NCBI GenBank assembly: GCA_041483195.1
Contig: JBGPFC010000011.1
Coordinates: 1-64,000, forward strand
From: Candidatus Eiseniibacteriota bacterium
GTDB taxonomy: Bacteria; Eisenbacteria; RBG-16-71-46
Direction of reading: 5' to 3'
Length of the DNA: 64,000 nt
How positions within the stretch are numbered: position 1 is the stretch's first letter; the number at the start of each line of letters is the position of its first letter. The notes beneath the pieces were generated by a model that was not told the origin of the DNA, did no database searches, and saw only the letters and a list, made by a program, of their open reading frames with translations. The position numbers were made by a program, and so were the translations under genes. Shown here one piece after another: positions 1,034 to 56,652 of the stretch.

Positions 1034-2277
1034 GCCAGCGCCTCGCGCGGGATCGACGCTTCGACGCGAACGCCCGAGCCCGGCGCTCCGCCCACGCGCA
1101 GCGATCCACCCAGTGCGCTCACGCGCTCGCGCATCCCGAGCAATCCGAGGTGGGGCGTGATCTCGCCCTTCAGGCCGAGCCCATCGTCCTCGACGCACAC
1201 CACCACCCGTCCGCCCTCGAGGGCGAGCCGCACCTTCACTCCGCTCGCGCGCGCGTGACGCGCGACATTGGTGAGCGCCTCCTGCACCACGCGATACACC
1301 GCGACCTGGATGTCGGGCGCGAGCGCCGGCATGAACTCGGGGGAATGGAGATCGACCGGGATGCGGGTGCGTCGCGCGAAATCCTCGGTGAGCGCGCGAA
1401 TCGCCGGCAACAGCCCGAGGTCGTCGAGCACCGTCGGCCTCAGCAGGTTGCTGAGATCGCGCACCTGCGAGAGGGCGCGGCCCACCATCTCGCTCGCCTC
1501 GCGCCGGCCGTCGAGGTCGAGCTCGATCTTGACAGCGGTGAGGATCTGCCCCGCCTCGTCGTGGAGTTCGCGCGCGATGCGGCGGCGCTCGTCCTCCTGG
1601 CTGCGCAGCAGCAGGCGGGTGAGCTGCTCGAGCTGCGCGCTGCGCGCCTGGAGCGCGCGACGGCCCTCGCTCAGCACCAGGAACATGGTGCCGAGCCCGA
1701 CCACCGCGATGAACAACACATCGGCGAAGACACCGTAGAGCACCCCGCTTCCGAGCGGACGCAGCAGCGGATAATCCAGATGGTGAAGACCCCAGAGCGT
1801 GAACGTGACCGCCAGCAGCGTCGCGCCGCCCGAGTGCGCCTGGCGCCGGTGCCGCCAGAATACGCCCCCGGTCCAGAGCGTCACCCCGGACAGAAGTACC
1901 ACGCTCGAGACCCCGGCCGCGACCATGTTGTGGATCCCGAAGATCGAGAACGCGGCCCACGCCGATGAAGCGACGCCCAGCCACGCGTAACGCCATCGCC
2001 AGCGCAGGCCGCGCGCGAACTGGTGCGCCGCGAGCAGCAGCAGCAGCGCGCTGAAGCCGGTCACCGCCTGGTGCGCGAACAGCCAGCCCTCGCGGCGCGT
2101 GACGATGAACACGGCGATGCACGCGAGTCGCACCGCGTACAACGCCCACGCGATCGCCCAGGTCGCGAAGTAGGAACGCCGCTGGCGATGCCAGAGCGCG
2201 AGATAGACCATCGCCTGCAGAAACGTGAAGAACGCCTGAAAGGCGAGGGCCGCGAGCTCGAGCGTCTGCTGATTCAT
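1030..2277 (-). CDS. Membrane sensor histidine kinase (multi-TM sensor, HisKA_3 + HATPase)
   Basis: About 7 hydrophobic N-terminal segments; QEDERRRIARELHDEAGQ H-box, QEALTNVARHA N-box, EDDGLG and LGLLGMRERV G-boxes. Confidence 0.93.
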   Translation of the reverse strand: MNQQTLELAALAFQAFFTFLQAMVYLALWHRQRRSYFATWAIAWALYAVRLACIAVFIVTRREGWLFAHQAVTGFSALLLLLAAHQFARGLRWRWRYAWLGVASSAWAAFSIFGIHNMVAAGVSSVVLLSGVTLWTGGVFWRHRRQAHSGGATLLAVTFTLWGLHHLDYPLLRPLGSGVLYGVFADVLFIAVVGLGTMFLVLSEGRRALQARSAQLEQLTRLLLRSQEDERRRIARELHDEAGQILTAVKIELDLDGRREASEMVGRALSQVRDLSNLLRPTVLDDLGLLPAIRALTEDFARRTRIPVDLHSPEFMPALAPDIQVAVYRVVQEALTNVARHARASGVKVRLALEGGRVVVCVEDDGLGLKGEITPHLGLLGMRERVSALGGSLRVGGAPGSGVRVEASIPREALA

Positions 2278-2366
2278 TCGCGGACTCTACCGCAAAGCGC
2301 GGCGCGGGGGACCGGCGCCCGGCCGCGCCCGAGCGCCGTGCGCCGCTGCGCCGCGACCGGGCCCGC

Positions 2367-5300
2367 TCACTTCCTTCGGGGGGGAGACGCCATCGACGGG
2401 TCGTGGCACTGGATGCACAGCTCGCGCTTCGGCTCATGCGTGAGCAGGTGGTCCTCCTCGCTCGCGTGCGGCCGGTGGCACCCGATGCAGGTGAGCGGCC
2501 CCCCGGTGCGCGGATCCTTGCGGTCCTTGAACGGATGGTAGTGCTTGGACATGTCGGCGTGGCAGGTCTGGCACAGCGCGTTGACGTCTTTCTTGAGCAG
2601 GCGCGCGCCGTCGGTCGCGTGCGGATCGTGACAGGTCGTGCAGCCGTTCTCGAGCGCCTTGTGCTTGACGCGGCCCGCGAACAGCTTCGGGTCGTGGCAG
2701 CGGAGGCACAGGCGGTCGGCGGGCTCGCGCAGCATCGGCGCGGCCGCGGCCCCGTGCGGCGCGTGGCAAGTGAGACACTCGCGCTCGGTCCGCAGCGCGG
2801 CGTGCACGTTCGATTTCGCGAGCGCTGCCTTGATCGGCTCGTGGCACTTGAAGCACAGCGCGGAGCCCTTCGCGAGCAACGCGCCGCCGGTCTTGGTCGC
2901 GTGGCACGATGCGCACTCCCCGCGCGCGAACGGCAGGTGCGATTGCGGCCGCAGCAGCCCCCGCCTGCCCCTGGCCTGGACGTGCGGGTCGTGGCAGGAG
3001 AGGCAGTTCACCACCGCGAGGTCCATGCCCGGATGGCGCGCCACGAACGCGGCGTTCTTCGCCGTGTGACAGCCCGCGCAGATTGCCGCCCCCGCCTTGC
3101 GCGTCATCCCCGGATTCGCGGAGCCGTGGCTCGCGTGGCAGGTCAGGCACATTCCCATCGCGACCGGCGGGTGCGCCGTGCCCTGCTCGATGCGCTGCGC
3201 GAGCGCGGTGTGACAGCCGAAGCAGAGCTGCGCGACGCGCGACTTGAGCAGCGACGGATTCACGCTCTGATGCGGCTCGTGGCAGCTCGCGCAATCGCCC
3301 GCGCGCGCGGGAGGATGGCCGTGAGCGAGCGCCGCGTCCTTCGTCACCTGGGCGTGGCAGGCGGTGCACAACCGCTGCGGCGACTGCGAGAGCAGCGCGC
3401 TGCGCTCCGATGCATGCGGCGTGTGACACGTGAGGCACTGCCCCGCCCCCGCGGGCGGATGCACGTGGGCGGCGGGCGTCTTCGGACGGCCCACGTCGTG
3501 GCACTTTCCGCACAGCTGGGTCTTGGGCGCGATCAGCGTCGCGGCGCTGGGCGGCGCGCCGGCGGCGTGGCAGCGCGTGCAGTCCTGTTCGGCGAACCCC
3601 GGATGCGTGTGCGCGGCGAGCAACGCCGCGCTCTTCGATTCGTGGGGCGTGTGGCAGCTCAGGCAGTTGACCCCCGTGAGCTGGGCGCCGCGGTGCTTGC
3701 CGCGGAGATCTTCGTCGGCGGGATCGTGGCAATCCGCGCACAACGCAGGGACCGCTTTCGTCAGCGCGGGCGGCACCACGCCGCCATGCGGATCGTGGCA
3801 GGTGAGGCAATCGCCACTCTCGACCGGTGGATGCACCGTGCCCCCCCGCTTGCCGATGTCGGCGTGGCACGGCACGCACAGGCCTCCGCCCTGCGCCTTC
3901 AGCAGCTTCGAGTTCTTCGAGCCGTGCGGCTCGTGGCACATGGCGCACGCCCCGTTCGCGGCGGCGGTGTGCGCGCCGGCGGATGCGATCTTCCTTCCGA
4001 TCTCGGCGTGGCAGGTGGTGCAAAGCTCGGCCGGCGGCCGCACCAGCAACGCCAGCGTCTCGCCGCCGTGCGGCGCGTGGCAGGTCAAGCACTGGCCCGA
4101 TTGCGCGGGGGGATGCGAGTGCTCGGATTTCGCGGCGCGTCCCACCTCCGGATGGCACGTGAGGCACAGCGCCTCGCCCGCGGCGCGCGTCAGCTTCGGC
4201 GCGTCCGACTGATGGGGGTCGTGGCACGCCGTGCAGTTCCCGGCGCGGAACGGCGGATGCGCCTCCTTGCCGCTCACCTTCTGGTCGACGCCCGCATGGC
4301 AACTGGTGCACAGCTCGCGCCCCTCGCGTCGCAGCAGGTGGAGATTCTCGCTCGCGTGCGGGGCATGGCAGCGCAGGCAATCTTTCTTCGCGGCCGGCGG
4401 GTGGGTCCCGCTGTTCGCGGCGAGGCGCTTCGCGAGATCCTGGTGGCAGCCCAGGCACATCGACCCGTCGTCCGACTTCACGAGCTTCGCGCGATCCGAG
4501 CCATGGGGCTCGTGGCACGCCGAGCACTCGCCCTTCGCGAACGGCGGATGTACGACCGGGAGTTTGGCGGCTTCGGCCACCTCGCCGTGACACGTGCCGC
4601 ACAGCGTGTTCGGCTTGTCGCGCAGCAGCGCGCCGCCCTCGCCGCGATGCGGGTCGTGACAGGTGAGGCACTGGCCTTCGGCCGCGGGCGGATGCGGATG
4701 CGGCTTGCGATCGAGCCCGGCCTTCTCGTCGTGACACGTCACGCACAGCGCCGGGACTTCGGCGATCAGCTTCGCGGTGGGCTTGCCGTCGCTCGATGCG
4801 TGACACGCCTCGCACTGGCCCTCCGCGACCGGCGGATGCGTCCCCGCCCGCGCGAGCTTCGGTGAGGACGAGGCGTGCGCCGCGTGACAATCGAGGCACG
4901 CGAGCGCGCCGCGCACGACCTTCGCGTGCGCGGCCTCGATCTGCGGCGCGGCGTGACAGCCCGCGCACAACGCGTCGCCTTCCGCCTTGAGGAGCCCGGG
5001 CGCCGCGCTCCCGTGCGGCGCGTGGCAGGCGCCGCAGTCTCCCGACCTGAACGGCGGGTGGACGTCGGCCAGCGACATCTCCTGCTTCGCCGCGGCGTGG
5101 CACTTGAAGCACGAGGCCTCGGGGCCGCCCGCGCGCACCAGGTGCGGAGCGTCGGTCGCGTGCGGCTCGTGGCAGCCGAGGCACCCGCCGCTCGCGAACG
5201 CCGGGTGCGGGTGCGCGGGCTTCGCCTTCGCGAGATCGCCGTGACAGTCGAAGCACAGGTCCGGGAGCTTCTTCTTGAGCACCAGCTTCTGGGCGAACCC

Positions 5301-5516
5301 GTGGCTCATGTGGCACGCGCCGCAATCGTTCTTCGCGACCGGGGCGTGCACGAATTTCTTCCGATACTCCTGCTTCGACTGGGTGTGGCAGTCGTAGCAG
5401 GTGCGGGCCGGGGCGCCGCCCGCGGGTGAGTGCGAGGCCACGAGTCCCGCGGCGAAGAGTACGCCCGCGAACAGCGCCGCGAGGCCGCGGCGCGGCGGGC
5501 GTTTCGATGGGCTCAT
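2367..5516 (-). CDS. Giant periplasmic multiheme cytochrome c, 42 CxxCH motifs (paired-CXXCH repeat type), ~1049 aa
   Basis: ATG 5516 overlaps the upstream TGA; signal peptide MSPSKRPPRRGLAALFAGVLFAAGLVA; 42 CxxCH counted by hand, in repeating H-P-P...CxxCHxPH...LCxxCH units. Confidence 0.95.
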   Translation of the reverse strand: MSPSKRPPRRGLAALFAGVLFAAGLVASHSPAGGAPARTCYDCHTQSKQEYRKKFVHAPVAKNDCGACHMSHGFAQKLVLKKKLPDLCFDCHGDLAKAKPAHPHPAFASGGCLGCHEPHATDAPHLVRAGGPEASCFKCHAAAKQEMSLADVHPPFRSGDCGACHAPHGSAAPGLLKAEGDALCAGCHAAPQIEAAHAKVVRGALACLDCHAAHASSSPKLARAGTHPPVAEGQCEACHASSDGKPTAKLIAEVPALCVTCHDEKAGLDRKPHPHPPAAEGQCLTCHDPHRGEGGALLRDKPNTLCGTCHGEVAEAAKLPVVHPPFAKGECSACHEPHGSDRAKLVKSDDGSMCLGCHQDLAKRLAANSGTHPPAAKKDCLRCHAPHASENLHLLRREGRELCTSCHAGVDQKVSGKEAHPPFRAGNCTACHDPHQSDAPKLTRAAGEALCLTCHPEVGRAAKSEHSHPPAQSGQCLTCHAPHGGETLALLVRPPAELCTTCHAEIGRKIASAGAHTAAANGACAMCHEPHGSKNSKLLKAQGGGLCVPCHADIGKRGGTVHPPVESGDCLTCHDPHGGVVPPALTKAVPALCADCHDPADEDLRGKHRGAQLTGVNCLSCHTPHESKSAALLAAHTHPGFAEQDCTRCHAAGAPPSAATLIAPKTQLCGKCHDVGRPKTPAAHVHPPAGAGQCLTCHTPHASERSALLSQSPQRLCTACHAQVTKDAALAHGHPPARAGDCASCHEPHQSVNPSLLKSRVAQLCFGCHTALAQRIEQGTAHPPVAMGMCLTCHASHGSANPGMTRKAGAAICAGCHTAKNAAFVARHPGMDLAVVNCLSCHDPHVQARGRRGLLRPQSHLPFARGECASCHATKTGGALLAKGSALCFKCHEPIKAALAKSNVHAALRTERECLTCHAPHGAAAAPMLREPADRLCLRCHDPKLFAGRVKHKALENGCTTCHDPHATDGARLLKKDVNALCQTCHADMSKHYHPFKDRKDPRTGGPLTCIGCHRPHASEEDHLLTHEPKRELCIQCHDPSMASPPRRK

Positions 5517-5992
5517 GGGGCGGAGCCGCCGGAGGCCGTGCTGTCGCCGCTCACGATCGCGGCGCGATCCTCGAAGTCCACGCGCGCGATCTGGAACGCG
5601 AGCAGGCTGCGGCGCCCGAAATGGGGCGGCATGTTGAGAAACGCCCAGCTCGTGTCCTGCGGCACGCCCTGTTTGCGCACGACGATGCGGAACGCCGGGT
5701 TGTTTGGCTGGTTCGAGCGCGAGCTCACGACGCGCGTCTTGAGATTCATGGTGAAGTCGGGAACGAATTCCGTCACCTGCGCAGTGTACGGAGTGTCCCC
5801 CACCTGGAAATCCTGCTTGAGCCGCACCGAGTCTTCCTCGCGGAAGCCGGGAAGCGCGCGATGCCGGATCCGGAGCGTCACGCTCTTCACGCGCAGCTTG
5901 CGTACCGGCGAAGGCGGCTCGGCGGCGCCGGCCGACACGCCCGCGAATACCGAGAGCACCAACATCAGCCTCACCAGGGCGCGGGCTCTCAT
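5513..5992 (-). CDS. Exported protein with a ResB/Ccs1 periplasmic-domain-like motif, 159 aa
   Basis: Signal peptide MRARALVRLMLVLSVFAGVSAGA; motif EFVPDF...SSRSNQPNNPAFRIVV...SWAF recalls the beta-rich ResB soluble domain; ATGA coupling at both ends. Confidence 0.7.
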   Translation of the reverse strand: MRARALVRLMLVLSVFAGVSAGAAEPPSPVRKLRVKSVTLRIRHRALPGFREEDSVRLKQDFQVGDTPYTAQVTEFVPDFTMNLKTRVVSSRSNQPNNPAFRIVVRKQGVPQDTSWAFLNMPPHFGRRSLLAFQIARVDFEDRAAIVSGDSTASGGSAP

Positions 5993-6624
5993 TTCGATCC
6001 TCCCGTCGCGGTCGACGGGCCGTCCGGCGGACCCGCGCGGAACCCCGAGAGCATCTCGGATGCGAGCTCGGACGCGAGCCGGCTCGCGCTGCGCTCGCGG
6101 CCCCAGCCGAACACCGTCTCGCGGTCGTCGCCGGACCGGAATCGCGACGCCGCCCACAACACGCGGCCGCTCGCCGCATCGGTGAGCAGGAGGCTCACGC
6201 CGATCGCCGGAACGTCGCCATCCGGAGTGCGCGCCATGACGTTCTCGAGGACGGTCCCTGACATCACGAGGTCCGCGCGGAGGGCGGCGCCGAGCCTGCG
6301 CAGATCGGCCGGGGCCAGCGCTCCCGCCGGATGGATGCGCAACGAATCGAGCGCGGCGTCCACGTCCCCCGGGCCCAGCAGCTCGCACGAGCCGGTTCGC
6401 GCCAGCGCGCTGAAGAAGATCGGAGTCAGCGCCGCCCCCGCCTCGGGGCGCCCGGTGAGATTCTCGAGCGGCAGCAGCGCGACGCGCGGATGACCGGCGA
6501 GGGCCGGGGGCGCTGGGCGCAGCGTGCGGCCTGCGCCCGCGCATCCACACGCGAGCATCGCGAGCGCGCCCACCGCGGCGCACGCCAGCACCGCGCGGCG
6601 CCCGGCTCGAACGCGCGCGCGCAT
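5989..6624 (-). CDS. Lipoprotein, CsgG/DUF799(GNA1162)-like fold
   Basis: Lipobox-like LACGC; RVALLPLENLT...LGAALRADLVMSGTVLE...LLLTDAASGRVLWAAS pattern; coupled start (TGATG). Confidence 0.75.
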   Translation of the reverse strand: MRARVRAGRRAVLACAAVGALAMLACGCAGAGRTLRPAPPALAGHPRVALLPLENLTGRPEAGAALTPIFFSALARTGSCELLGPGDVDAALDSLRIHPAGALAPADLRRLGAALRADLVMSGTVLENVMARTPDGDVPAIGVSLLLTDAASGRVLWAASRFRSGDDRETVFGWGRERSASRLASELASEMLSGFRAGPPDGPSTATGGSK

Positions 6625-7247
6625 CAGAACGCCTTCGCCCGCAGGTGCGCGACGGCGTCGGCGCACGCGTCCTGCGTGAGGCGGCCGAAGGTGCGCTCGC
6701 TCGGGCCGCCGAACACCGGCACGCGCCCGTGACCGCGGCGATTGATGGAGATCCTCCACACGACCCTTTGGGTCGCCGCGTCGAGCAGCTCGACGTCGAA
6801 GCTCACGGCCGGGAAGTCGTCCCCTCCCGCGCGCTGGGTGGAATACTCGGTGACGGCCCCCCGGATGATGCCGTTCGCCTCAGCCTTCGCGGCGGCATCC
6901 TTCAGCTTGTCGGGATCGTAGCGGCCCTCGACGTTGGGCTCTCCGCCCACCTTCTCCAGCGAGGCCGCGAATTCGGAGGGCTCGATCACCTCGAAAGGAT
7001 GCGCGATGATGAGCTCCGTGATGAATGCGCGGGTGACACGCTCGCCGGCGAATCGGTCGGGGCTCAGATTGCTGAATGGGAGCACGGCGACCCGGCGGTA
7101 GAAGCTCATGTCCGCCTGGTCGCTCACGAAGAGGCGCGGCGCAGCTGCGCAGCCCGCGAGCAGCGCGAGGCCCGAGGCGGCCGCGACCGCGATCGGAATC
7201 GCACGGCGCACCGCGGGAAAATGGTTCGCGCCGCTCGCGTGCCTCAT
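6624..7247 (-). CDS. Lipoprotein, CsgG/DUF799(GNA1162)-like fold (paralogue of neighbour)
   Basis: Lipobox LAGC; RVAVLPFSNLS...ANGIIRGAVTEY...VELLDAATQRVVW; ATG 7247 overlaps the barrel stop (ATGA). Confidence 0.8.
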   Translation of the reverse strand: MRHASGANHFPAVRRAIPIAVAAASGLALLAGCAAAPRLFVSDQADMSFYRRVAVLPFSNLSPDRFAGERVTRAFITELIIAHPFEVIEPSEFAASLEKVGGEPNVEGRYDPDKLKDAAAKAEANGIIRGAVTEYSTQRAGGDDFPAVSFDVELLDAATQRVVWRISINRRGHGRVPVFGGPSERTFGRLTQDACADAVAHLRAKAF

Positions 7248-8941
7248 CGCCCGAAGCTCCGGGTGATCGTCACATCCGCCTGTCGCGCGCGGCTCCCCGC
7301 GCCCGGATCCACCACGCTCATGCCGGCATTGAACACGAGATCGCGGCCGAGTCCCAACAGCAATCGGCCTCCCAGCACCTCGCGGCCCGGAATCTGCGCA
7401 GCGGAGCTCTGCGCCTGGCGCTGATCGCTGCGCGTCCAGTTCCCGGACATCTGGAACCTCGCCCCGGGACTCCAGCGTGCCGTCCACTGGCGGGTCGAGA
7501 CCCGCGGATCGTCGTTCGGCTGTGCGCCCGCGCGCGACAGGCTGGCGGTGACGTCCAGCGTCCGCGCCGGCTTCCAGCGGAGATCGAGGCCCAGCATGTG
7601 TGAGATCGACCGCGCATCGAAGAGGCCCGGCCCCGAGCGATATCTCCGCTCGGCGAGCACGAGGGTGAGACCCCGCCACGGGGTGGCGGTGACCCCCGAC
7701 CCCGCCTGCGTGATGACGCGCACGCCGTGGGCCGCGGTATCGCCGTTGCTCGTCACCTGAAAATCGGTCGTGACGTCCAGCCCCTTGCGCAGGTGAACGC
7801 TCGTCGCGCCGCGAAAGCTCTCGACACCGAAGACCGACTGGCTCGGATTCCAGCTCGTCACGTGGGAGACGCTCGCGGTCCCGCGCCAATCGGGCCGCAC
7901 CACGCCGTCGAACGCCGCGGTGGCCGACGCGTAGCGCATGAGCCCGTTCACGGTCGCGGTGCGCGCGGTCCGCGCTCCCCCAGAGATCGTCCCGTGGAAC
8001 GCCTGCGCGGGATGCACGTCGAGCAGCAACCCCGCGTCGTGGTCGACGAAGCGGGTGACGCTCGAACCCCCGGTGTCGAGGCGTCGCGCCGCGTAATTGA
8101 GCGCCCAGTCCAGGCGGCGCGACTGGCGCAGCCCCGCGGTCAGCGTGCCGCCCAGGGTCTGCGTCAGGTTGCCGGCACCACGCGCGTTTTCGACGCGGGT
8201 GTGCGAGAGATCGGCATCCATCCCGATCGAGAGGGCCGGCCGCGGCGTCGCGCGAAGCGAGGCCCCCGACGTGATCGATCGCTGGGTCGTGGCGCGAGTC
8301 GCCGCGCCCGACGGCTGGTGGACGAGGTCGCTGTATCCGCCACGCATGCTCAACACCCCGCGATCCCACGTAGACTGCACGCTGCGCGTGGCTCCCAGGT
8401 CTTCCGGGATCTGGCCATCGGCGCTGCGATGCCGCCGGATCCACGACGCGTCGACGCGCGGAAGGTTCGGCGCGGCCAGATAGCCCGAGAACAGGGCCTC
8501 CTGCGTTCGCGTTCGCACGCTGGGCCCGTTCGCCGTGTCGCCGATCGCGGTGACCGAGGTGGTGGGCCGGTACGATCCGCTCAATCCGAACAGCGGATGG
8601 CTCAGCCGCAGCGCGCCGTACGGCGTGCGGCTCTGGCTCGCGCGATCCTGGTACGAAAGATCGGTGAGCCGCAGCTGCGACACGACGTCCAGGCGCTCGC
8701 CCATGCGCGTCGCGTGATTGAGCTCGTAGTTCTGGATCCAGAACCGTGAGGAGATGGTGGTGTCGCGCGCGCTCCCGTCCGGGGCGAGACGGCGCACCGT
8801 CTGCCGCACCTCCTGGAACTGCACCTGAAGATGACCCGAGAGCGGCTGCGCGGAGGCCGCGCCCGCCGCGCCGAGCACGGCGGCCGCGCACGCTGCGGCG
8901 AAACCTGGGGCCCGCGCGCGCGCGCGCGCCTCATCGCGCAT
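7244..8941 (-). CDS. Predicted outer-membrane beta-barrel protein of the cytochrome cluster
   Basis: Signal peptide ending AASA-Q; many alternating amphipathic strands; C-terminal ADVTITRSF; lies between cytochromes and lipoproteins. Confidence 0.75.
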   Translation of the reverse strand: MRDEARARARAPGFAAACAAAVLGAAGAASAQPLSGHLQVQFQEVRQTVRRLAPDGSARDTTISSRFWIQNYELNHATRMGERLDVVSQLRLTDLSYQDRASQSRTPYGALRLSHPLFGLSGSYRPTTSVTAIGDTANGPSVRTRTQEALFSGYLAAPNLPRVDASWIRRHRSADGQIPEDLGATRSVQSTWDRGVLSMRGGYSDLVHQPSGAATRATTQRSITSGASLRATPRPALSIGMDADLSHTRVENARGAGNLTQTLGGTLTAGLRQSRRLDWALNYAARRLDTGGSSVTRFVDHDAGLLLDVHPAQAFHGTISGGARTARTATVNGLMRYASATAAFDGVVRPDWRGTASVSHVTSWNPSQSVFGVESFRGATSVHLRKGLDVTTDFQVTSNGDTAAHGVRVITQAGSGVTATPWRGLTLVLAERRYRSGPGLFDARSISHMLGLDLRWKPARTLDVTASLSRAGAQPNDDPRVSTRQWTARWSPGARFQMSGNWTRSDQRQAQSSAAQIPGREVLGGRLLLGLGRDLVFNAGMSVVDPGAGSRARQADVTITRSFGR

Positions 8942-10358
8942 AGCCGACCGTGTACGACTCGCTTCCGTGGCAGGTGGGTGCGCAACTGCCGCCGGTCGCG
9001 GTCTCGGTGTAGGTCACGATGCCGGGCGCGCGCCCGGTCGCGATGAGATGCTTCTGCGTCGGCGCGCCATGCGTGGCGTGGCAGGCGTAGCAAGGCACGT
9101 TCTCCTCGCCGACGTGCTCGGCGTGGCCCTTCACGGCGTTCGGCGAGCTGAAGCGCGAATATCCGCGCACCGATTCCGGCGACGACGGATTGGCGTAGAC
9201 GTCGAACGCGTGGCAGCTGAAGCAGACTTCGTCGGACGCCATCGGCCGGAAGGCCGGCGACGCCGTGTAGGGCCCGGTCAGGATGTAGCGATAGCTCGAG
9301 CCGTGCGGCCCGCGGGTCGTGCCGAGCTCGCTGCCGTGGCAGTCCCCGCAGCGCGTGAGCGATGACGCGCTCCAACCCGCCACGAACGCGAGCGGATGGA
9401 TGTTCCGGTTGTTCCCCGCGGCCTCGACCGGATGGGTCGAGAGATTGTTGGGATTGAGCGCGCGCGCGAGGTCGGTCTGCCCGGCCGGCTGCGTCGTCCA
9501 CGACGAATGGCACTTGAAGCAGAGCTGAAACTCCGCGACCGGAGGCGTGAGCGTGTCGGACGCCACGATGAACGTATAGGAAGGCGCGCTGCCGGCGACG
9601 CCGTTCAATACGCCGACCCGGCTTACTCCGAGCAGGCGCTTCGATGCGGCCGGAGCATCGGGCGCCGCGAGCCCATCGCCGCGCGCGACGTGCGGATTGT
9701 GACAGTCCTCGCACTCCGCGTGACGGCGATTGACCGGCGTAACGGCGAAATCCGCGGGCTGGCTCTCGGCCGGGCCGGTGTGGCGGCCGGCGATGTCCAT
9801 CACCGGATGACGAAACGCCTTGAGCAGATCTGCGCGCACGTTGCTCGCGGCGGGATGCCCGTCGTGGCACGTGAGGCACAGCGCCTCTTCGCGCGCGATC
9901 GCCAGGCGTGGGATCAGGCCGGACGCGTCCTCCCATCCGTGCGGGTCGTGACAGTTCACGCACTTCCCGGCGGCGTCCGGCTCGACGCGTGAGGGCGGGT
10001 AGGGGCCTGGCCAGATCATCGCGGCCTCGCTCCCATGCGCGGATCCGGCGTAGGTCCAGGTATCCGGGTAGCTGCCGCCGGACCATGGGGTGGTGTGGCA
10101 GTCGTCGCAAAGCGTGTTGTCGTCGGGGCCCACCAGCGCGTGCGGCTGGGGCGCGGGCTGCGCGTTCGCGTGCTGCGTGTGGCAGGTCTCGCAGTCACCC
10201 GCGTGGGCGCTCTCGGCGAGCAGGTGCGCGATGCGGTCCGTGCCGCGGAGGGGCGGCAGGGGCCGCGAGAAGGAGACGAGGGTCGCGGCCGCCAGCATCA
10301 GCGCCAGCACTCCGCGAGTATCGACCGCCCGATGCGCAGACTGGTCCACGCCGCCCAT
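8931..10358 (-). CDS. Multiheme cytochrome c (9 CxxCH + 1 CxxxCH); start uncertain (10358 ATG or 10310 GTG)
   Basis: CETCH, CDDCH, CVNCH, CLTCH, CEDCH, CFKCH, CGDCH, CFSCH, CYACH and C-terminal CAPTCH; hydrophobic N-terminal leader. Confidence 0.9.
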   Translation of the reverse strand: MGGVDQSAHRAVDTRGVLALMLAAATLVSFSRPLPPLRGTDRIAHLLAESAHAGDCETCHTQHANAQPAPQPHALVGPDDNTLCDDCHTTPWSGGSYPDTWTYAGSAHGSEAAMIWPGPYPPSRVEPDAAGKCVNCHDPHGWEDASGLIPRLAIAREEALCLTCHDGHPAASNVRADLLKAFRHPVMDIAGRHTGPAESQPADFAVTPVNRRHAECEDCHNPHVARGDGLAAPDAPAASKRLLGVSRVGVLNGVAGSAPSYTFIVASDTLTPPVAEFQLCFKCHSSWTTQPAGQTDLARALNPNNLSTHPVEAAGNNRNIHPLAFVAGWSASSLTRCGDCHGSELGTTRGPHGSSYRYILTGPYTASPAFRPMASDEVCFSCHAFDVYANPSSPESVRGYSRFSSPNAVKGHAEHVGEENVPCYACHATHGAPTQKHLIATGRAPGIVTYTETATGGSCAPTCHGSESYTVGYAR

Positions 10359-10485
10359 CCGTTCGCGCTGACGCACCGCGGTCTCCGTGCTACTCCATCG
10401 TGGATGGTGCGGGCACGGCGCCCGCACCACCCGGCCCGCCGCGCGCCGGGTCTGTATCGCACGCGGCGGGGTTGAGGTCGACCGA

Positions 10486-11523
10486 CTATGCCCCTTCGGT
10501 GTGGCACTGCCGGCAGAGGTCGCGATGCTGTCCGCCGTCACCATCCTCGGTGGCCGTTCCCGTGCCCTTCATGAAGATCAGCCCGAACGCGTTCTGGGTC
10601 CCATGTCCCCGGTGGCAGCTGAAGCACGACGGCGTGACGGTGTTGTCCGCCGTGGTGCCGTCCCACAGGCCCTGGGAGTCCATCACCTTGACCTTGTTCG
10701 TGTGGCTGTTGAACTGCGAGAGGCTCGAGATGTACGTCGCGGTCGAACCACTCGCCCCGATGTTGACGTCCGCGGTCGGATGCCGCTTCCACGGGTTGGC
10801 GTTGGTCGAGCCGGTGCCGCCGCTCGCGCCGCCCATGTTCGCAGCTCCACCCGAGCCGTGGAAGTCGACGTGGCACGTCGAGCACCATGCTCCGTATGCG
10901 CTCTTCGTGACGTCGGGCTCGTTGAAGTCCACGTCGGCGTCTTTGTAGTGCGCCGCCGAGCGTTCGAACACGTCCTTCGTCAGGTCGTTCGTGCCCACGA
11001 CGTACGTCAGATTCTTGCCGGCGAAGGCACTGCGATTGAGAAGATTCCGATACTGCGCCGCGATGCCGTGCTGCGCGTGGCAGCTCACGCACTCCAGACC
11101 GTCCGGAGCCGTGAAGGTGCCGCCCGGCGCGACGCCCGTCGAATACAGCGTGTGGCCGTCGATGCCGTCGTATCCGACGTCGTTCGTGAAGCCGTGTCCG
11201 GTTTCAGCGGTCAATCCGCCGGCCCGGCGGATGCCCGCCGTGCCGCCGTTCGCGCCCAGCACGTCCGGCGCCCACGACTGATTGTCGTGGCAGGCCAGAC
11301 ACAGGGCGTTGGGGTCATTGCGCAGCAGATCCGCGTACGGCCCGCTGGTGCCCAGCGGCGGAAACACCGTGCCGCCCACGCTGTAGCCGTGCGACTGGCT
11401 GTCGTGAGCGACGTGGCAGTCGCTGCAAACCAGCGACGCGCCCACGTGGAAGTCGCCTGCCATGGCTGATGTGGCGAGCCCGAACAGGGCGGCCACCGTC
11501 AGTAAACCGATCAGGCGTTTCAT
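10486..11523 (-). CDS. Hexaheme cytochrome c, OmcS (nanowire cytochrome)-like
   Basis: AGGAG RBS; Sec signal MKRLIGLL...AMA; six CxxCH with OmcS-type context: FH-x6-CSDCHxxH, LL..CLACH, GH..APGGT..LECVSCHxxHG..YRNL, WCSTCHxDFH..RHP, CFSCHRGH, RDLCRQCH near the C-terminus. Confidence 0.85.
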   Translation of the reverse strand: MKRLIGLLTVAALFGLATSAMAGDFHVGASLVCSDCHVAHDSQSHGYSVGGTVFPPLGTSGPYADLLRNDPNALCLACHDNQSWAPDVLGANGGTAGIRRAGGLTAETGHGFTNDVGYDGIDGHTLYSTGVAPGGTFTAPDGLECVSCHAQHGIAAQYRNLLNRSAFAGKNLTYVVGTNDLTKDVFERSAAHYKDADVDFNEPDVTKSAYGAWCSTCHVDFHGSGGAANMGGASGGTGSTNANPWKRHPTADVNIGASGSTATYISSLSQFNSHTNKVKVMDSQGLWDGTTADNTVTPSCFSCHRGHGTQNAFGLIFMKGTGTATEDGDGGQHRDLCRQCHTEGA

Positions 11524-11629
11524 GTATTCACTCCTGCTGAGATGGGTAAGGGTGCTGCACTCAGCTCGCGCGAGAACTACTGCTTGTCGTCACCACCTCC
11601 TCCTCGTGTGCCGCACCATCCGAGATCCT

Positions 11630-12613
11630 TCACCGGATCGTCAGCAGTTGAATTCGCCCGCTCACACGCTCGGCGACGGCGAGGCGGGCTTTCCCGTCGG
11701 TCGCGAGCGCGCATGGATAGAGAAATTCGCCGGGCGCCGATCCCACACGGCCCACCGCCCCCAGAAAGCGCCCGGCGAAATCGAAGACCTGCACCAGCTG
11801 CCGGATCTCATCGCTCACCCAGATGCGGCCGTCGTCGGTGACGGCAACGCTCGATGGGAACGAGAAATTCCCCTCGCCGATGTCGTGCACGCCGAATCCA
11901 CGGATGAACCGGCCATCGGATTCGAAGATCTGGACCGCGCGCTGGGTGTCGAGGCACAACACGACCACGTGGCCGTCCGGGGTCGCCGCGAGCCCGGTGA
12001 TGCGCGCGATCTGTCCGGAGTCGCGGCCCGGCACGCCCCACACCCGAACCAGCGCGAGCTCCGGCGTGAACATGAACACGCGACCGCTCGCCCCGCGCGA
12101 GCCGACGAGAATCGAGCCATCGCGTGCCACCGCGACCGCCGCCGGCCCGAGCGCTTCCTCCGGCTCTCCGGCGCTCCGCGGAATCGCGAGGCGGGCGATC
12201 GACCGTCCCCGGAAATCGACGATGTCGAGGTAGGGCGCGAGATTGTCCACCACCAGCGTTCGGCCGCGGCCATCCACCGAGAGCGCGACCGGCAGGCCGT
12301 CCACCCACGTGCCGTCGGGTTGCTGGACGCGGTGGATGTAGTGAGCGCGGGCGCGTCCATCGAGCCCGATCACGTCGACGCGGTGGGCGCCGGTATTCGC
12401 GATCAGGATCTCTCCATGGGCGGCGTCGATCGCGAGGCCTCCCGGAGCAGCGAACGCGATGCCGGGCTCGGGGCCAGGCACCACCAGGGCGCTATCGATC
12501 GCGGGCGGGATCGACGCCGTCGCGATCGAGACGCACGCGCAGACGGCGACGGCGACGGCGCCGAGAATTGCGTCCCGAGTGGCGCGGGGAGAATGCGTTC
12601 CAGGGTGGCTCAC
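11630..12613 (-). CDS. Exported NHL-repeat (6-bladed beta-propeller) protein
   Basis: Repeats FAAPGGLAID, LPVALSVDGRG, FSFPSSVAVTDDGRIWVSD, GEFLYPCALATDG; hydrophobic leader. Confidence 0.88.
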   Translation of the reverse strand: MSHPGTHSPRATRDAILGAVAVAVCACVSIATASIPPAIDSALVVPGPEPGIAFAAPGGLAIDAAHGEILIANTGAHRVDVIGLDGRARAHYIHRVQQPDGTWVDGLPVALSVDGRGRTLVVDNLAPYLDIVDFRGRSIARLAIPRSAGEPEEALGPAAVAVARDGSILVGSRGASGRVFMFTPELALVRVWGVPGRDSGQIARITGLAATPDGHVVVLCLDTQRAVQIFESDGRFIRGFGVHDIGEGNFSFPSSVAVTDDGRIWVSDEIRQLVQVFDFAGRFLGAVGRVGSAPGEFLYPCALATDGKARLAVAERVSGRIQLLTIR

Positions 12614-12680
12614 GGGTCTTGGTCCTGATGGCTGATCTACGTAGTTCTCGGTATCCTGGGCTCAGTGTTCGTACAGAAGG

Positions 12681-12695
12681 GCAATCGCGATGCCA
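12681..12695 (-). promoter_or_regulatory. Putative sigma54 (-24/-12) promoter for the cytochrome operon
   Basis: Minus strand TGGCATCGCGATTGC = GG-N10-GC with TGGCA and TTGC, ~70 nt upstream of the NHL gene start. Confidence 0.65.
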
Positions 12696-13084
12696 TCAGT
12701 AACACTACGTTCCGAGGCCCGGTGATCCGGGTTATCGGATTGCGCGGCAGTGCGTTCGGGGAGAGAGCCGAGGCCCTCGAGTGGGTCGGATCGGCCCGTC
12801 GTGAGGCACTCGCCTGCCACCGTGGCAGCGGTCTCTGACAGGCTGGCCGGATCCACGGACGCGACGCGATCACCGATGACGCGCGGCCACGAGCCGCGTA
12901 CGCCGCTCGCCTGTGTTTCGTGCGGAGCGCGCGGAGCGCGCGACACGCGCCGCGCGTCGCCGTACTCCTCTGGTTGCGCACCACGATGTCCCGACTTCGG
13001 TCGCTGCGCGCGCACGGATGGCTTCGAGTTCTTCGCGCACGCGCGTGGCACCGTGCGGGCTCGCCCGTGCGACCGCGACGCGGC

Positions 13085-13099
13085 GGGTACGGAAGTTGC
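13085..13099 (+). promoter_or_regulatory. Putative sigma54 (-24/-12) promoter for ccmF-TBDR
   Basis: Plus strand GGGTACGGAAGTTGC = GG-N10-GC with ACG and TTGC, ~100 nt upstream of the ccmF ATG. Confidence 0.45.
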
Positions 13100-13196
13100 C
13101 TGAAGCCGTGGTGCTCGACCTCGATGTCGCCGGCTCGCACGATCGACCGTGCGGCTCGACCCGATCGCGTTCGACGCGTGTGACCGGAGGCCCACC

Positions 13197-16100
13197 ATGA
13201 ATCCCGGGGATCTGCTGCTCAGGCTCGCGCTCGTGACCGCGGTGCTCTCCGGCGTGTTCTACTTCGGAAGCCTGCGCGGGCGGCGCTGGAGTGCCGACGC
13301 GTGGATCTTCAGGGTCCACGCGTTGCTCCTGGTGGCCGCGTTCGCGCTGCTGTGCGCGTACTTCATGGGGCACCACTTCGAGTACTCGTACGTCGCGCAA
13401 TTCAGCTCGCGGGCGCTGGCGCCCGCGCTCACGCTCGCGGCGGTATGGGCGGGGCAGGAAGGCAGCATCCTGTTGTGGGCGACGTTCGGGGCGTTGATCG
13501 GGCTCGCGTTGATGCGTCAGCCGGGCCGGCTCGCCCGCCCCGCGATGTTCTTCCTGAGCCTCGCGCAGATCGGCCTGCTCGTGCTGCTGCAGCTGCGCAG
13601 CCCGTTCGCGCTTTCGTCAGCGACTCCGGCCGATGGGCGAGGACTCAACCCGCTGCTCGAGGATCCGTGGATGGTGGTGCATCCCCCGGTGCTGTTCCTG
13701 GGTTATGCCGCGCTGGTGGTGCCCTTCGCGCTCGCCGCGGCCGCGCTCGTCGTGCGTGAGTACCGCGAATGGAATCGCATGACCTGGCCGTGGGCGCTGT
13801 TCGCGGTCGTCGTGCTGGGCGCTGGAATCGCGCTCGGCGGCGTGTGGGCGTACAAGGTGCTCGGGTGGGGCGGCTACTGGGGATGGGATCCGGTCGAGAA
13901 CGCTTCGCTGGTTCCGTGGCTGGTGTCGGTCGCGCTGCTGCACGGCCTCCTCATCCAGCGCACCACGGGATCCCTGATCCGCACCAACCTGCTGCTCGCG
14001 TGCGCGGGCTGGGTCACGGTGCTGGGCGGCACGTATCTCACGCGCAGCGGCGTGCTGCAGGACTTCTCGGTGCACTCCTTCGCCGACTCCGGCATCAACG
14101 GGCCATTGAAGACCATCCTCTTCGTGTTCCCCGCGATCGCGCTGGTGCTGCTCGCCGCGCGCTGGCGCACCGTTGACGCGGCGAACACCCGGATCGCGAG
14201 CGTCTCGCGCGAGTCGGCGCTGTGGCTCGGCATGATCACGGTGCTGGTGCTCGGCGCGCTGGTCACGATCGGGACCACCGCTCCGCTGCTCACAGCGCTC
14301 GCGGGAAAGCCGTCGGGATTGCAGGCGGAGTTCTACCAGCGCGTGAGCCTGCCGATCGGCATCGCGCTGGTCCTGCTGATGGGCCTCTCACCGGCGCTGC
14401 GCTGGTATCGCCAGAGCGAGCTGTCGTGGCTGGCGGGGCTGCTGCCGGGCATCGCCGCCGCGTTGCTCGTCACCGTGCCGGCATACATGCTCGGCGCGCA
14501 CGCTCCCGGCCTGCTCGCGCTGGTCGCCGCCGCGGGGCTCGCGCTCGGGGTCAACGCGGTCGTCGCCGTACGCGTGTTTCGCCGCGGGTGGATGTACGGC
14601 GCGGGATATCTCGGACACATCGGCATCGCCGTCATGGTGCTCGGCATGGCGCTTTCGAGCACGCTCGGCAAGAGCCAGAGGCTCGAGCTCGCACAGGGTC
14701 AACCGGCCCATGCGCTCGGCTACACGCTCACCTGGAAGGACGAGGCGAGCGACGGGCGCGGCGGCCGTCTGCTCCACATCGTGGTACAGGCGCCGAACTG
14801 GACGCTCGATGCGCATCCCGCGCTGCTCCCATCCCCGCAGAACGAGGGCGTGATCCGCAAGCCCGCGATCAGCGGCTGGCGCGAACTCTATCTCTCGCCG
14901 CTCGAATTGCGCGAGCGGACGATGGATTCCGGCGGGATGACGTGGTTCGAGAAGGGCCAGCCCCTCGATGCGGGCGGGGCGCGCTACACCTTCAAGGGCT
15001 TCCGCATGGAATCGGGTTCGGGATTCCGCGTGCACGCGGATCTCGAGGTCCAGAAGGATGGACGCGTGATGCAGGCCTCACCCGCCATCGCGTCGGACCC
15101 GGCCGGGAGTCGCGCGGTTCCCGCGGAGATTCCGGGGATCGGGCCGGTCACCATCGCGCGCATCGACGCGGACCGCGGGCGGGTCGCGCTCCTGCTTCCC
15201 GCGGCCCCGATCGCGGCGACCATGGCCGTGGTCGACCTCAGCACCAAACCGTTTATCAATCTCGTGTGGATCGGCGCATTGCTCGCGGTCTTCGGTACGG
15301 GACTCGCGGGGTTGCGCCGCGCCACCGAGAAAGCCACGTCGCGCGGAACGCGGACGGCGGCGGGCAGCGGCCCGCCGCGGCCACTCCGCGGTGCCTCGCG
15401 ACCCAATATGGAGGAAGTCGCCATGCTGCCAGGCTCTTCGACGGGACGCGCGCGCCGCGCGGGAGTGGGATGGTGGATGCTGGTGGGACTCGCGGCACTG
15501 ATGCCCGCGTGGGCGGGGGCGGCGGGACCTGCGGCGCCGGACACGACGCGGCCGGTGATGTTCCTGAAAGAAACGCTCGTCACCGGGGCACGGATGCCGC
15601 GGGTCTACTACGAGTCGCCGCAGGCGCTGTCGTTCGTGTCGCGCACCCAGTTGCGCGAGCAGGCGCCGGGGGCGCTGGGCGACGTGCTGGGGACGCTGCC
15701 GGGGGTGGACAACAGCAAGGACAGTCCGTGGGAGCAGCGGCCGGTGCTGCGGGGCCTGGCGGGGCAGCGGGTGCTGGTGCTGATGGACGGCACGCCGATG
15801 AACAGCGTGCGCGGCAACGGGCCGCACCCCTCGCTGGTGGACCCGGCGCAGGTGGAGCGGATCGAGGTGGTGCGCGGTCCCTCGTCGGTGGCGTACGGAT
15901 CGGATGCCCTGGGCGGGGTGATCAACATCATCACGCGCGAGGCGCTGCCGGGAGCGGGTCGCAGCCTGAGCGGGTCGGCGACGCTGGGGGGCAGCACGGT
16001 GGACCAGCAGCGCACCGGCTACCTGGAGCTGATCCCGCGGATCGGGAAGTTCTCGGCGTTTCTCTCGAGCGGGGCCCGCAAGGCGGAGAACTTCGAGGCG

Positions 16101-17657
16101 CCCTCTGGCAAGGTGGCGAACTCGCAGTTCGACGACTACAACGCGCTCTCGAACCTGCGCTACCAGTTCACCGAGCGCACCGCGCTCAAGGGCGGCTGGC
16201 AGGTGTACCGGGGGCGCGACATCGGGATCCCGGGGCTCGACATTCGAGTCCCGGGTGAGATCGACGCGTACTCGTTTCCGTTCTACGAGCGCAACTTCGC
16301 GCACCTGACGCTCGACCACGGCTATCGCAGCTCGTGGCTGGCGGGCACCCGGGCGCGGGTGTACTGGCAGCGCGAGCACCGCGACTTCTTCTCCGTCAAC
16401 GAGGTCGCGCGCGCGCAGTTCTACAACGATCCCTACCTGGGACTGAACCCGGTGTTCAACCCGGCGCCGGGCGCGGCGCAGGGCATCGTCCAGCGCCAGG
16501 ACCGCTACTTCGATCTGCGCACCTGGGGCGGACAGCTGCAGCTGACCTCGATCAAGACGAAGTGGACCCGCTTCACCGCCGGGCTCGACGCGGCGCGCGA
16601 CCAGACCGGGGGCGACAACCTGCGGCTCCGCAACTGGCACTACACCTCGATCGGCGGCGCCGACTCGGCCGGTGCGACCAGTACGCGGCGCACCGCCTCG
16701 CTGCCGCGCGGCCGGTTCGCCAACTACGGCGGCTATCTGCAGAGCGAGTGGTACGTGCAGCCGCAGTGGACGCTGTCGGCGGGCGGACGCTACACCCACT
16801 ACCGCTACCGCACCGACTTCGGGCTCAACGCGCCGGCGGCCGGACCTTCGCCCGTCGCCTACTTCCAGCCCAAGTCGGTGGACGACGACGCGGCGAGTGG
16901 CTCGCTGGGATTGGTCTACACCCCGATCCGCGACCTGCACCTCACCGCCAACCTGGCGAACGGCTACCGCGAGCCCAACGCGCAGGACCTGTTCTTCAAC
17001 GGTCCGGGCTCGGTGGGCACGGTGCTCGGCAATCCCGACCTGAAGCCGGAGCGCAGCGTGTCCTACGACCTCGGGCTGCGCTGGGGACCGGGACCGTTCG
17101 CGATCTCGGGCAACGCGTTCTACACCACCTTCGACGATCTGATCAATGCGCTGCCGGTGGCGGCCGGCACCTACCAGTACACCAACATCGCGACCGCGAC
17201 CACCTGGGGCGGCGAGCTGGAAGGCGAGTGGCGCTTCCTGCCGCGCTGGACGGCGCGGAGCTCGATGTCGGGCACGGTGGGCGACATCACCAGCCGCGAG
17301 GCGATCCGCAAGATCTATGGGATCGACATCGACCGCGTGCCGCTGGAGCTGGTGCCGCCGTTCCGGGGCAGCGCCGCGCTGCGCTGGAGCGAAGCGCGCG
17401 ATCGGTTCTGGGTGGAGGGCAGCGCGCGTGGCTCGTGGCGCACCAATCGCCTGCCGCCGCCGATCCCGGGGGTCGGCCAGCTCTCGAGCTTCAAGAGCGA
17501 GTGGCTGGCGGGCGATGTGTTCGCAGGGGCGCGGCTCGGCGCGCAGCGCCTGCTGCTCGGCGTGCGCAACGTGGCCGACCGCCGCTATCGCCAGCCGCTG
17601 GGCTCGCTGGATGAGCCCGGACGCTCGGTGGTGGCCAGCGTCTCGACCGACTTCTGA
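13197..17657 (+). CDS. ccmF: CcmF/NrfE-type cytochrome c heme lyase, with no stop before the in-frame TonB-dependent receptor (CcmF part ~13197..15330)
   Basis: GGAGG RBS before ATG 13197; [41 protein letters not shown] (WWD domain), TRSG...SVHSF, [13 protein letters not shown]. Confidence 0.88.
   Translation: [1486 protein letters not shown]
15423..17657 (+). CDS. TonB-dependent receptor (own RBS and signal peptide; in frame with ccmF), 744 aa
   Basis: GGAGG before ATG 15423; plug motifs LRGL..[49 protein letters not shown]; C-terminal [13 protein letters not shown]. Confidence 0.92.
   Translation: [744 protein letters not shown]
15435..15669 (+). repeat. Right arm of the inverted repeat (partner 1..235)
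   Basis: 233/235 identity to the reverse complement of 1..235; identity starts at codon 5 of both TBDR genes. Confidence 0.93.
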
Positions 17658-35824: not shown

Positions 35825-36082
35825 GGCGACCTCCTGCTGGGTGGGCAACCCTGAGGGGCACCTCTGAGGCTACGCCTCAGCCGCACTGCGTCAATGAGAT
35901 TCCTGAACCATATGGGAATGGAGCACCGGTTTAGGATCGAGCGGTCCGCAAATCGACTCCGGCGCAGCGGGTTGAAGCGTTGAGACGCAATTTAAAAGAT
36001 GCTGACCGCTCTGGCAGCGAGAGTCACGATCCAAGAGCCCGCGCCTTGACAGCGGGCCGCGCGCGGCAGAACTTTCGCGACC

Positions 36083-50580: not shown

Positions 50581-50896
50581 GGGGCACCCCTCGCTGAAGT
50601 AGGACCTTGTCGAGTACCGAAACCCGCGGGGTAAACTAGTCTGTTTAGCGTTGCCTCCCTGCGCGCGCGGCGCGTCACTTCGTGAAGTGAGACGGCGAAT
50701 GAGTCGAATCGAGGTGAATCGCGCTTGCAAGACCGTGTAGAGGATACCGCCTCGGGGGCGGGCAGTCGAGCCAGAATGCCCGTGGCGTTCGCGTTACGGG
50801 CACGTGACGGCAGCCCGTCCCTCGAGGATCATCCCCGCGCCTCGCCGAGCCGGCCATCCCGACTGCCGAGATGGCGCGCCCCGCCCCCCTTTCGGG

Positions 50897-56591: not shown

Positions 56592-56652
56592 GCCCAGCGC
56601 CGGATGCGTGGCTCCGCCATGACGCGCGCGATCGCGCCCGGTCCGGCGTCGG

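Follow-up and report, generated by a model that had tools for sequence, protein, structure and literature searches.

OmcS of Geobacter sulfurreducens is a multiheme cytochrome with a role in Fe(III) oxide reduction and in interspecies electron transfer (PMC10954620). Its gene has companions: the omcS companion (osc) operon encodes OscH, OscE, OscF, OscG and OscD, to which PMC13194489 attributes folding (OscH), secretion (OscE/F/G) and filament morphology (OscD), a channel role being proposed for OscEFG. In the clusters built around a second filament cytochrome, OmcE, the subunit is accompanied by two multiheme cytochromes, a large barrel and two propeller lipoproteins, and mounting of a porin type has been put forward as a model for them (PMC13712944). 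In both OmcS and OmcE, one heme is ligated by a histidine from the adjacent subunit, according to PMC9473688. Here we describe a cluster of eight minus-strand genes at positions 2367–12613 of a 64,000-nucleotide stretch of contig JBGPFC010000011.1 (hereafter the window, about 70% G+C), from a sediment genome of Candidatus Eisenbacteria. We estimate the probability that this cluster is a compact member of the OmcS/osc type at roughly 0.7.

This assignment draws on the homology of the hexaheme cytochrome of the cluster. A profile made from 20 members of its family (profile A1) has OmcS (6ef8) as its best match in the PDB, with E=1.2e-7. When the profile is broadened by twelve distant relatives (profile A7), the match to 6ef8 reaches E=1.2e-17 in a single alignment, which runs from query positions 25–364 to OmcS residues 1–405 of 407; the six heme motifs of the two proteins are collinear in this alignment, and the predicted mature N-terminus of the hexaheme cytochrome (G-D-F-H-V-G..., after the signal peptide) aligns with residue 1 of mature OmcS. 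The PDB matches that follow OmcS in the search with profile A7 are 7tfs (2.1e-7), an OmcE-type filament chain, and 9yuq (8.1e-7), and the profile also matches the N-terminal half of OmcE-type chains. The entry 9YUQ is described as an OmcE-type filament cytochrome in PMC13712944.

Seven histidines outside the heme motifs (His 26, 40, 124, 152, 222, 248 and 307) are invariant in 22/22 diverse hexaheme sequences. One of them, His40, which lies four residues past the first heme motif, aligns with OmcS His16, which we take to be the residue that ligates the heme of the neighboring subunit. The family is large: among 1.84 billion cluster representatives, 641 relatives of the hexaheme cytochrome are found at E<=1e-3, 395 at <=1e-10 and 184 at <=1e-30. 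To judge from these profile matches, the hexaheme cytochrome is a distant but clear homologue of OmcS, in line with the preliminary description of this DNA, which called the locus OmcS-like. It is the proposed filament subunit, and we infer that it forms filaments.

The genes were called from third-position G+C and from homologues, with which the start codons chosen for the cluster genes are consistent. The features are the following.

11630–12613, minus strand: first gene of the cluster, secreted NHL propeller protein of 327 residues (Pfam NHL, E=6.2e-15; DUF5128 six-bladed propeller, E=4e-6).
10486–11523, minus strand: hexaheme c-type cytochrome of the OmcS family, precursor of 345 residues, about 322 when mature, with 6 CxxCH.
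10359–10485, minus strand: intergenic spacer with two G+C-rich hairpins, found from its folding energy compared to shuffles.
8931–10358, minus strand: decaheme cytochrome of 475 residues, with 9 CxxCH and a C-terminal CxxxCH ('CAPTCH').
7244–8941, minus strand: outer-membrane beta-barrel candidate of 565 residues (period-2 hydrophobicity, language-model features).
6624–7247, minus strand: PelC-like lipoprotein 1, 207 residues, lipobox Cys33 (profile A3; Pfam LpoB, E=1.4e-4).
5989–6624, minus strand: PelC-like lipoprotein 2, 211 residues, lipobox Cys28 (profile A5).
5513–5992, minus strand: small secreted protein of 159 residues that belongs to no known family, conserved in 46 loci.
2367–5516, minus strand: 42-heme cytochrome of 1049 residues, made of 21 tandem doubled-CxxCH units (Pfam Paired_CXXCH_1, E=2.4e-220).
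13194–15350, plus strand: CcmF/NrfE-type heme lyase, divergently transcribed upstream of the cluster (Pfam Cytochrom_C_asm, PF01578, E=1.2e-33; CcmF_C, PF16327, E=3.6e-19).

The NHL gene starts with a GTG at 12613 and the stop of the 42-heme gene lies at 2367, which makes the limits given in the preliminary description exact. It had also announced about 58 heme-binding motifs, and the eight genes encode 57 CxxCH and one CxxxCH, that is, 58; and the overlap of start and stop codons that it noticed in the last six genes amounts to 11, 4, 1, 4 and 4 bases at the five junctions. A scan of positions 2000–13400 for promoters and terminators gave no signal above shuffles, and no Rfam family or tRNA was detected in the 64-kb window. 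Regarding the spacer that follows the hexaheme gene, its minimum free energy is -71.4 kcal/mol (z=-2.48; 4/200 shuffles fold equally well) and it has no terminator-like site with a T run. Its hairpins may act as an attenuator or as an mRNA stabilizer.

A scan for the hexaheme cytochrome, made with one genome per species, returned 115 relatives. The best 80 matches fall into 79 loci (32 close and 47 distant), and the family profiles were run over all the open frames of these loci. Most of them come from metagenome-assembled genomes (MAGs) of Candidatus Eisenbacteria, whose hexaheme cytochromes are 60–68% identical to that of the window; next, at 43–56% hexaheme identity, come Zixibacteria, Latescibacterota, Krumholzibacteriia, Gemmatimonadota and Ignavibacteria, and also Fibrobacteraceae, Armatimonadetes, Acidobacteriota and Planctomycetota. 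The canonical order of the eight families is found in 33/79 loci (41/79 if the barrel is not required), mostly from Eisenbacteria and other candidate phyla of the Fibrobacteres–Chlorobi–Bacteroidetes (FCB) type, and 51/79 loci have at least seven of the eight families. Restricting the count to the 52 loci that are long enough to judge gives 24 canonical loci, and 32 if the barrel is left out of account; of the other 20, most are rearranged, and four contain little besides the subunit gene, three of these nothing else. Conservation is highest for the hexaheme gene, whose median identity is 64.5% among the close loci and 48.2% among the distant loci, and an NHL gene lies beside it in 31/32 close and 40/47 distant loci (71/79, with at least 60% coverage). 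These counts show, on the level of sequence, that many genomes conserve the eight genes as one unit. Since the same families recur in dozens of loci of other genomes, the gene arrangement is evidently not due to chance.

Two variations on this unit were seen. At least two hexaheme frames are present in 21/79 loci, which recalls the omcS/omcT duplication in Geobacter. In Zixibacteria-type loci (L038, L047, L056, L059, L074 and others), the unit has a different order: large cytochrome, NHL, hexaheme, cytochrome, barrel, two lipoproteins, and then a second NHL–hexaheme pair.

The barrel is less well conserved, at about 32% identity, and its assignment is based on general features of the sequence. 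The family-averaged hydrophobicity has a period-2 power of z=+4.9 compared to shuffles, while the same test gives -0.9, -1.4 and -2.1 for three control families of the cluster. There is no hydrophobic helix past the signal peptide, and the nearest neighbors of the protein in language-model features are outer-membrane barrel clusters (0.96). The barrel was also considered as an MtrB/PioB porin, and this candidate was rejected: none of 20 members of the barrel family matches MtrB_PioB. Co-prediction of the barrel with lipoprotein 1 returned a score of 0.00, which gives no verdict.

Against the PDB, the profile of lipoprotein 1 (A3) matches PelC (5t11, E=2e-11; 9h80_C, E=3.5e-8) and GNA1162 (E=1.5e-4), and that of lipoprotein 2 (A5) matches PelC (9h80_C, E=2.4e-17), GNA1162 (E=8e-7) and LpoB (E=8e-4). 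The two proteins are paralogous (hhalign of A3 against A5: probability 100, E=1.7e-40), and the lipobox cysteine is invariant in each family (Cys33 in the case of lipoprotein 1). They had been described as CsgG/DUF799-like. This label holds loosely: GNA1162 is a DUF799 protein, but neither profile matches a CsgG chain in the PDB, and PelC is the best match. PelC is an outer-membrane lipoprotein of the Pel export gate, in which it forms a ring under the PelB barrel. The barrel profile, searched against a PDB library that includes 9h80, matched no PelB chain.

The 42-heme protein has 42 CxxCH motifs spaced by 20–30 residues, arranged as 21 units of about 48 residues with two motifs each, and Paired_CXXCH_1 matches it in 21 stretches. 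All of its 84 cysteines lie within motifs, and its 95 histidines would be enough for bis-His ligation. In the decaheme cytochrome, the C-terminal CxxxCH is kept in 13/13 aligned Eisenbacteria-type sequences; in distant loci, the form encountered is shorter and has 7 hemes. A single-sequence PDB search with the decaheme protein gave chance-level matches only and no relative.

The small secreted protein has ten invariant residues (R45, D66, P78, F80, N98, A100, W116, P123, H124 and F133) and matches nothing in Pfam, NCBIfam or the PDB; a language-model atlas gives only a weak DUF2155-like lead (0.81). It had been called ResB-like, an identification that has to be abandoned: 0/27 members of the family match ResB at E<=1, and the whole genome is also without a ResB match.

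Several observations weigh against the assignment of the cluster to the OmcS/osc type. A single-sequence PDB search with the hexaheme cytochrome gave chance-level matches only and did not find OmcS, which is why we call the relationship distant, and the protein is about 85 residues shorter than OmcS (about 322 residues when mature, vs 407). The barrel has no Pfam family (20 members searched) and no NCBIfam or PDB match. No peptidyl-prolyl isomerase domain, which would correspond to the role of OscH, was found by Pfam or NCBIfam in the eight cluster proteins, the search being confined to these. Last, the hexaheme gene is patchy among close relatives of the host: it is present in 13/40 relatives, in 0/3 of the same genus (these genomes are 80–93% complete) and in 8/24 of the same family. 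By this distribution the hexaheme cytochrome is an accessory trait, which suggests that it was gained or lost within the lineage.

Among the genes around the cluster is the heme lyase. It scores 266 bits against NCBIfam nrfE, under the 569-bit cut-off, and because its NCBIfam scores are under the subfamily cut-offs it is best described as a divergent CcmF/NrfE paralogue. Housekeeping ccmC, ccmE and ccmF genes are found on contig C4 of the same genome, so the lyase at 13194–15350 is a second paralogue. A homologue of it (at least 60% coverage) lies upstream in 14/79 loci, and profile matches occur there in more loci. It is plausible that this lyase is dedicated to the cluster, and the conserved CxxxCH site together with a private CcmF/NrfE paralogue suggests a dedicated heme-attachment step.

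The lyase and a TonB-dependent heme receptor form one open frame (13194–17657, plus strand, 1487 codons) with no stop between them, which makes the 3' end of the lyase uncertain; the receptor starts at an ATG of its own (15408 or 15423), followed by a signal peptide. The lyase–receptor join (junction 15201–15464) coincides with a branch point of the assembly: public contigs end at 15435–15464, none of them bridges the join, and receptor-side contigs from three runs continue upstream into another sequence, at about twice the depth. That the two genes adjoin may reflect an error of assembly or one of two variants. The receptor, a histidine kinase (1030–2277) and a ThiI-like gene are each found in 0/79 related loci. 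The contig begins at base 1 of the window, and in the three frames within 1–1258 Pfam gave no match to a response regulator. The preliminary description had endowed the cluster with its own heme lyase, TonB-dependent receptors and two-component system. The lyase remains plausible, as a second CcmF/NrfE paralogue; the receptor and the kinase accompany the cluster in none of the 79 related loci, and the two-component system is reduced to its histidine kinase, the frames tested having yielded no response regulator.

The identity of the host was deduced from the methionine synthase of the window, which is 81% identical to that of the Candidatus Eisenbacteria RBG_16_71_46 genome (which holds locus L033), 76–77% identical to that of another Eisenbacteria MAG, and at most 42% identical, over partial coverage, to those of Latescibacterota, Zixibacteria and Gemmatimonadota genomes. 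This gene is located to the right of the doubtful lyase–receptor join, and on the left all the cluster genes match Eisenbacteria MAGs best. By these identities the host is a member of Candidatus Eisenbacteria and not a deltaproteobacterium, in agreement with the non-Geobacter, FCB-like host that had been expected from the window. Near-identical DNA occurs in sediment-metagenome sequencing data: five runs beyond the two possible sources contain 75–96% of the sampled words; no RNA run is among the listed runs with this DNA.

In the genome (4.17 Mb, 93 contigs, 96.8% complete), three or more CxxCH occur in each of 14 open frames. Contig C19 (9000–29000, locus L080) encodes an MtrA-like decaheme cytochrome, an MtrB/PioB porin (E=8e-83) and a cytochrome b. 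It also encodes proteins with 18, 19 and 5 hemes, and a fusion of a 14-heme cytochrome with a cytochrome b561 domain; this fusion resembles CbcL of Geobacter. On contig C12 (95431–97362, locus L081), a 20-heme cytochrome gene runs off the contig end. With the 14 multi-CxxCH frames, the MtrA–MtrB/PioB pair and the 14-heme–b561 fusion, the genome is equipped for extracellular electron transfer. Elsewhere in the window, two minus-strand genes (33731–35848 and 48466–50793, G+C 0.62–0.66) encode large secreted proteins that carry a FlgD_ig-like domain at the C-terminus; PD40 propeller repeats are present in one of the two, and a PorV-like gene lies at 55566–56729. The set resembles components of a type IX-like secretion system and its cargo.

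Three other explanations have to be considered. In the first one, the same hardware is used in reverse, to take up electrons from Fe(II), from reduced minerals or from a partner cell, and not for the respiration of extracellular acceptors. The direction of electron flow cannot be read from a sequence, and the genome also has a porin of the MtrB/PioB family, which is used by iron oxidizers too. Surveys made with FeGenie list iron-cycling genes of Eisenbacteria MAGs without separating these roles (PMC8478452). Nothing speaks directly against such a reverse use, other than that the characterized OmcS is reported to act in Fe(III) oxide reduction and interspecies transfer (PMC10954620); we consider it unlikely.

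In the second explanation, the cluster encodes a porin–cytochrome conduit: the barrel houses the decaheme cytochrome, and the hexaheme cytochrome is a monomeric terminal reductase at the cell surface, like MtrC, so that there is no filament. A barrel with a periplasmic and an outer cytochrome is indeed the plan of the Mtr and Pcc systems too, the hexaheme cytochrome is shorter than OmcS, and its polymerization is a proposal. However, the barrel is outside the MtrB/PioB family, and the true MtrAB-type pair of the genome is elsewhere, on contig C19. The PelC-like ring lipoproteins belong with a polymer export gate, and we know of none in Mtr or Pcc conduits. Moreover, the N-terminal segment is invariant, and so is the histidine that aligns with the OmcS inter-subunit ligand; the three best PDB matches are all filament formers. 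These observations make a conduit of this type quite improbable in our view. Last, an unrelated periplasmic multiheme reductase system, which the preliminary description had named as a case that would refute it, is evoked by the weak, motif-driven NCBIfam matches of the 42-heme protein to NrfH, NrfB and HmcA (far under the cut-offs). It can practically be dismissed: neither a catalytic subunit nor a heme ligand motif other than His was observed, the homology of the hexaheme cytochrome with OmcS is end to end, and the conserved unit includes a candidate outer-membrane barrel and lipoproteins.

Returning to an OmcS-type filament system, we infer polymerization, export through the barrel and its ring, a supply of electrons by way of the 42-heme chain and a role for the private lyase, and we propose the following mechanism. 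All the cluster proteins would be exported by Sec, and their hemes would be attached by the System I Ccm machinery, with the neighboring CcmF/NrfE paralogue possibly serving the conserved CxxxCH of the decaheme cytochrome. The barrel, with the two PelC-like lipoproteins in a ring, would form an outer-membrane gate, which would act as PelB–PelC does for the Pel polymer and as was proposed for OscEFG. The hexaheme cytochrome would be threaded through this gate or anchored there, and the subunits would join head to tail outside the cell, His40 of one subunit ligating a heme in the following one. Electrons would come from a CbcL-like quinol-oxidizing cytochrome encoded elsewhere in the genome and be conducted over the periplasm and the membrane by the 42-heme chain and the decaheme cytochrome, and the propeller may steer assembly or filament shape.

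If the assignment is right, an uncultured, peptide-degrading sediment lineage joins the likely builders of OmcS-type cytochrome filaments, and it would do so with a small, well-conserved unit of eight genes that could be expressed as a whole. The likeness to PelC gives a concrete and testable picture of the export gate, that of a lipoprotein ring below a barrel.

A broader idea is that the compact hexaheme cytochrome of about 322 residues, the barrel and the two PelC-like lipoproteins are the common OmcS-type machinery of several sediment candidate phyla (Eisenbacteria, Zixibacteria, Latescibacterota, Gemmatimonadota and Ignavibacteria), with a gate that derives from the Pel gate or shares ancestry with it and a 42-heme wire that spans the periplasm and plugs into it. 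We put this forward tentatively, as a possibility that we would not yet favor. In that case, cytochrome filaments would be the means by which peptide-degrading heterotrophs of these phyla respire minerals, and the filaments would be exported by a porin and a ring, with no pilus motor.

As for novelty, we regard the cluster, on the strength of its gene content, as a published system in a new host and not as a new kind of system. The osc-type machinery is reportedly widespread and ancient, if we go by the title of Shen et al. 2025 (Cell Chem Biol 32:239). The preliminary description presented the host as of a type not known for nanowires, which is overstated, considering this title and the occurrence of the hexaheme gene in 13/40 relatives. 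Full-text literature searches found no paper on this cluster in Eisenbacteria, and Shen et al. 2025 may already list these phyla. The passages searched in PMC10954620, PMC5815863, PMC11323493 and a preprint on peat (10.64898/2026.05.27.727921) contain nothing on this cluster.

Compared by description with the osc operon, the present cluster also combines, on one strand, an OmcS homologue with a propeller, a barrel-and-lipoprotein set and very large multiheme cytochromes. It differs in having eight genes with a single subunit gene and no omcS/omcT/oscC paralogues, and in having a 42-heme cytochrome, a small protein that belongs to no known family and an adjoining CcmF/NrfE paralogue. The large periplasmic multiheme cytochromes of the osc cluster are OscI and OscJ (GSU2495 and GSU2494), of which the 42-heme and decaheme cytochromes may be the counterparts, as the barrel candidate and the lipoproteins may be of OscEFG (GSU2497–GSU2499). 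The OmcE clusters have a similar composition: a proposed filament subunit and a large barrel candidate are found here too, next to two multiheme cytochromes and a propeller protein. The Geobacter-like set of companions that had been recognized in the window (NHL protein, lipoproteins, barrel and large multiheme cytochromes) corresponds to the published osc and OmcE descriptions. Regarding the subunit itself, OmcE has four hemes, whereas the present one has six and aligns with the full length of OmcS.

The comparison with the PelC–PelB gate (PDB 5t11, 5t10, 5t0z and 9h80) is of another nature. Both lipoproteins match PelC and carry the lipobox cysteine, and their genes are located directly after that of the barrel. 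On the other hand, the cluster has two paralogous lipoproteins where Pel has one, the cargo here would be a protein, the window is without pel-type domains, and the barrel has no detectable similarity to PelB or to TPR.

The closest relative remains OmcS itself (GSU2504 of G. sulfurreducens, PDB 6ef8 and 6nef). The two cytochromes have six collinear CxxCH and match end to end at the profile level; in both, the mature N-terminus reads F/Y-H-x-G-x4-CxxCH-xx-H, hemes 1, 3 and 5 have the motif CxxCHxxH, and heme 4 has CxxCHxxxH. The present protein differs by its length (about 322 residues vs 407), and by forming a large family of its own, with 641 cluster representatives.

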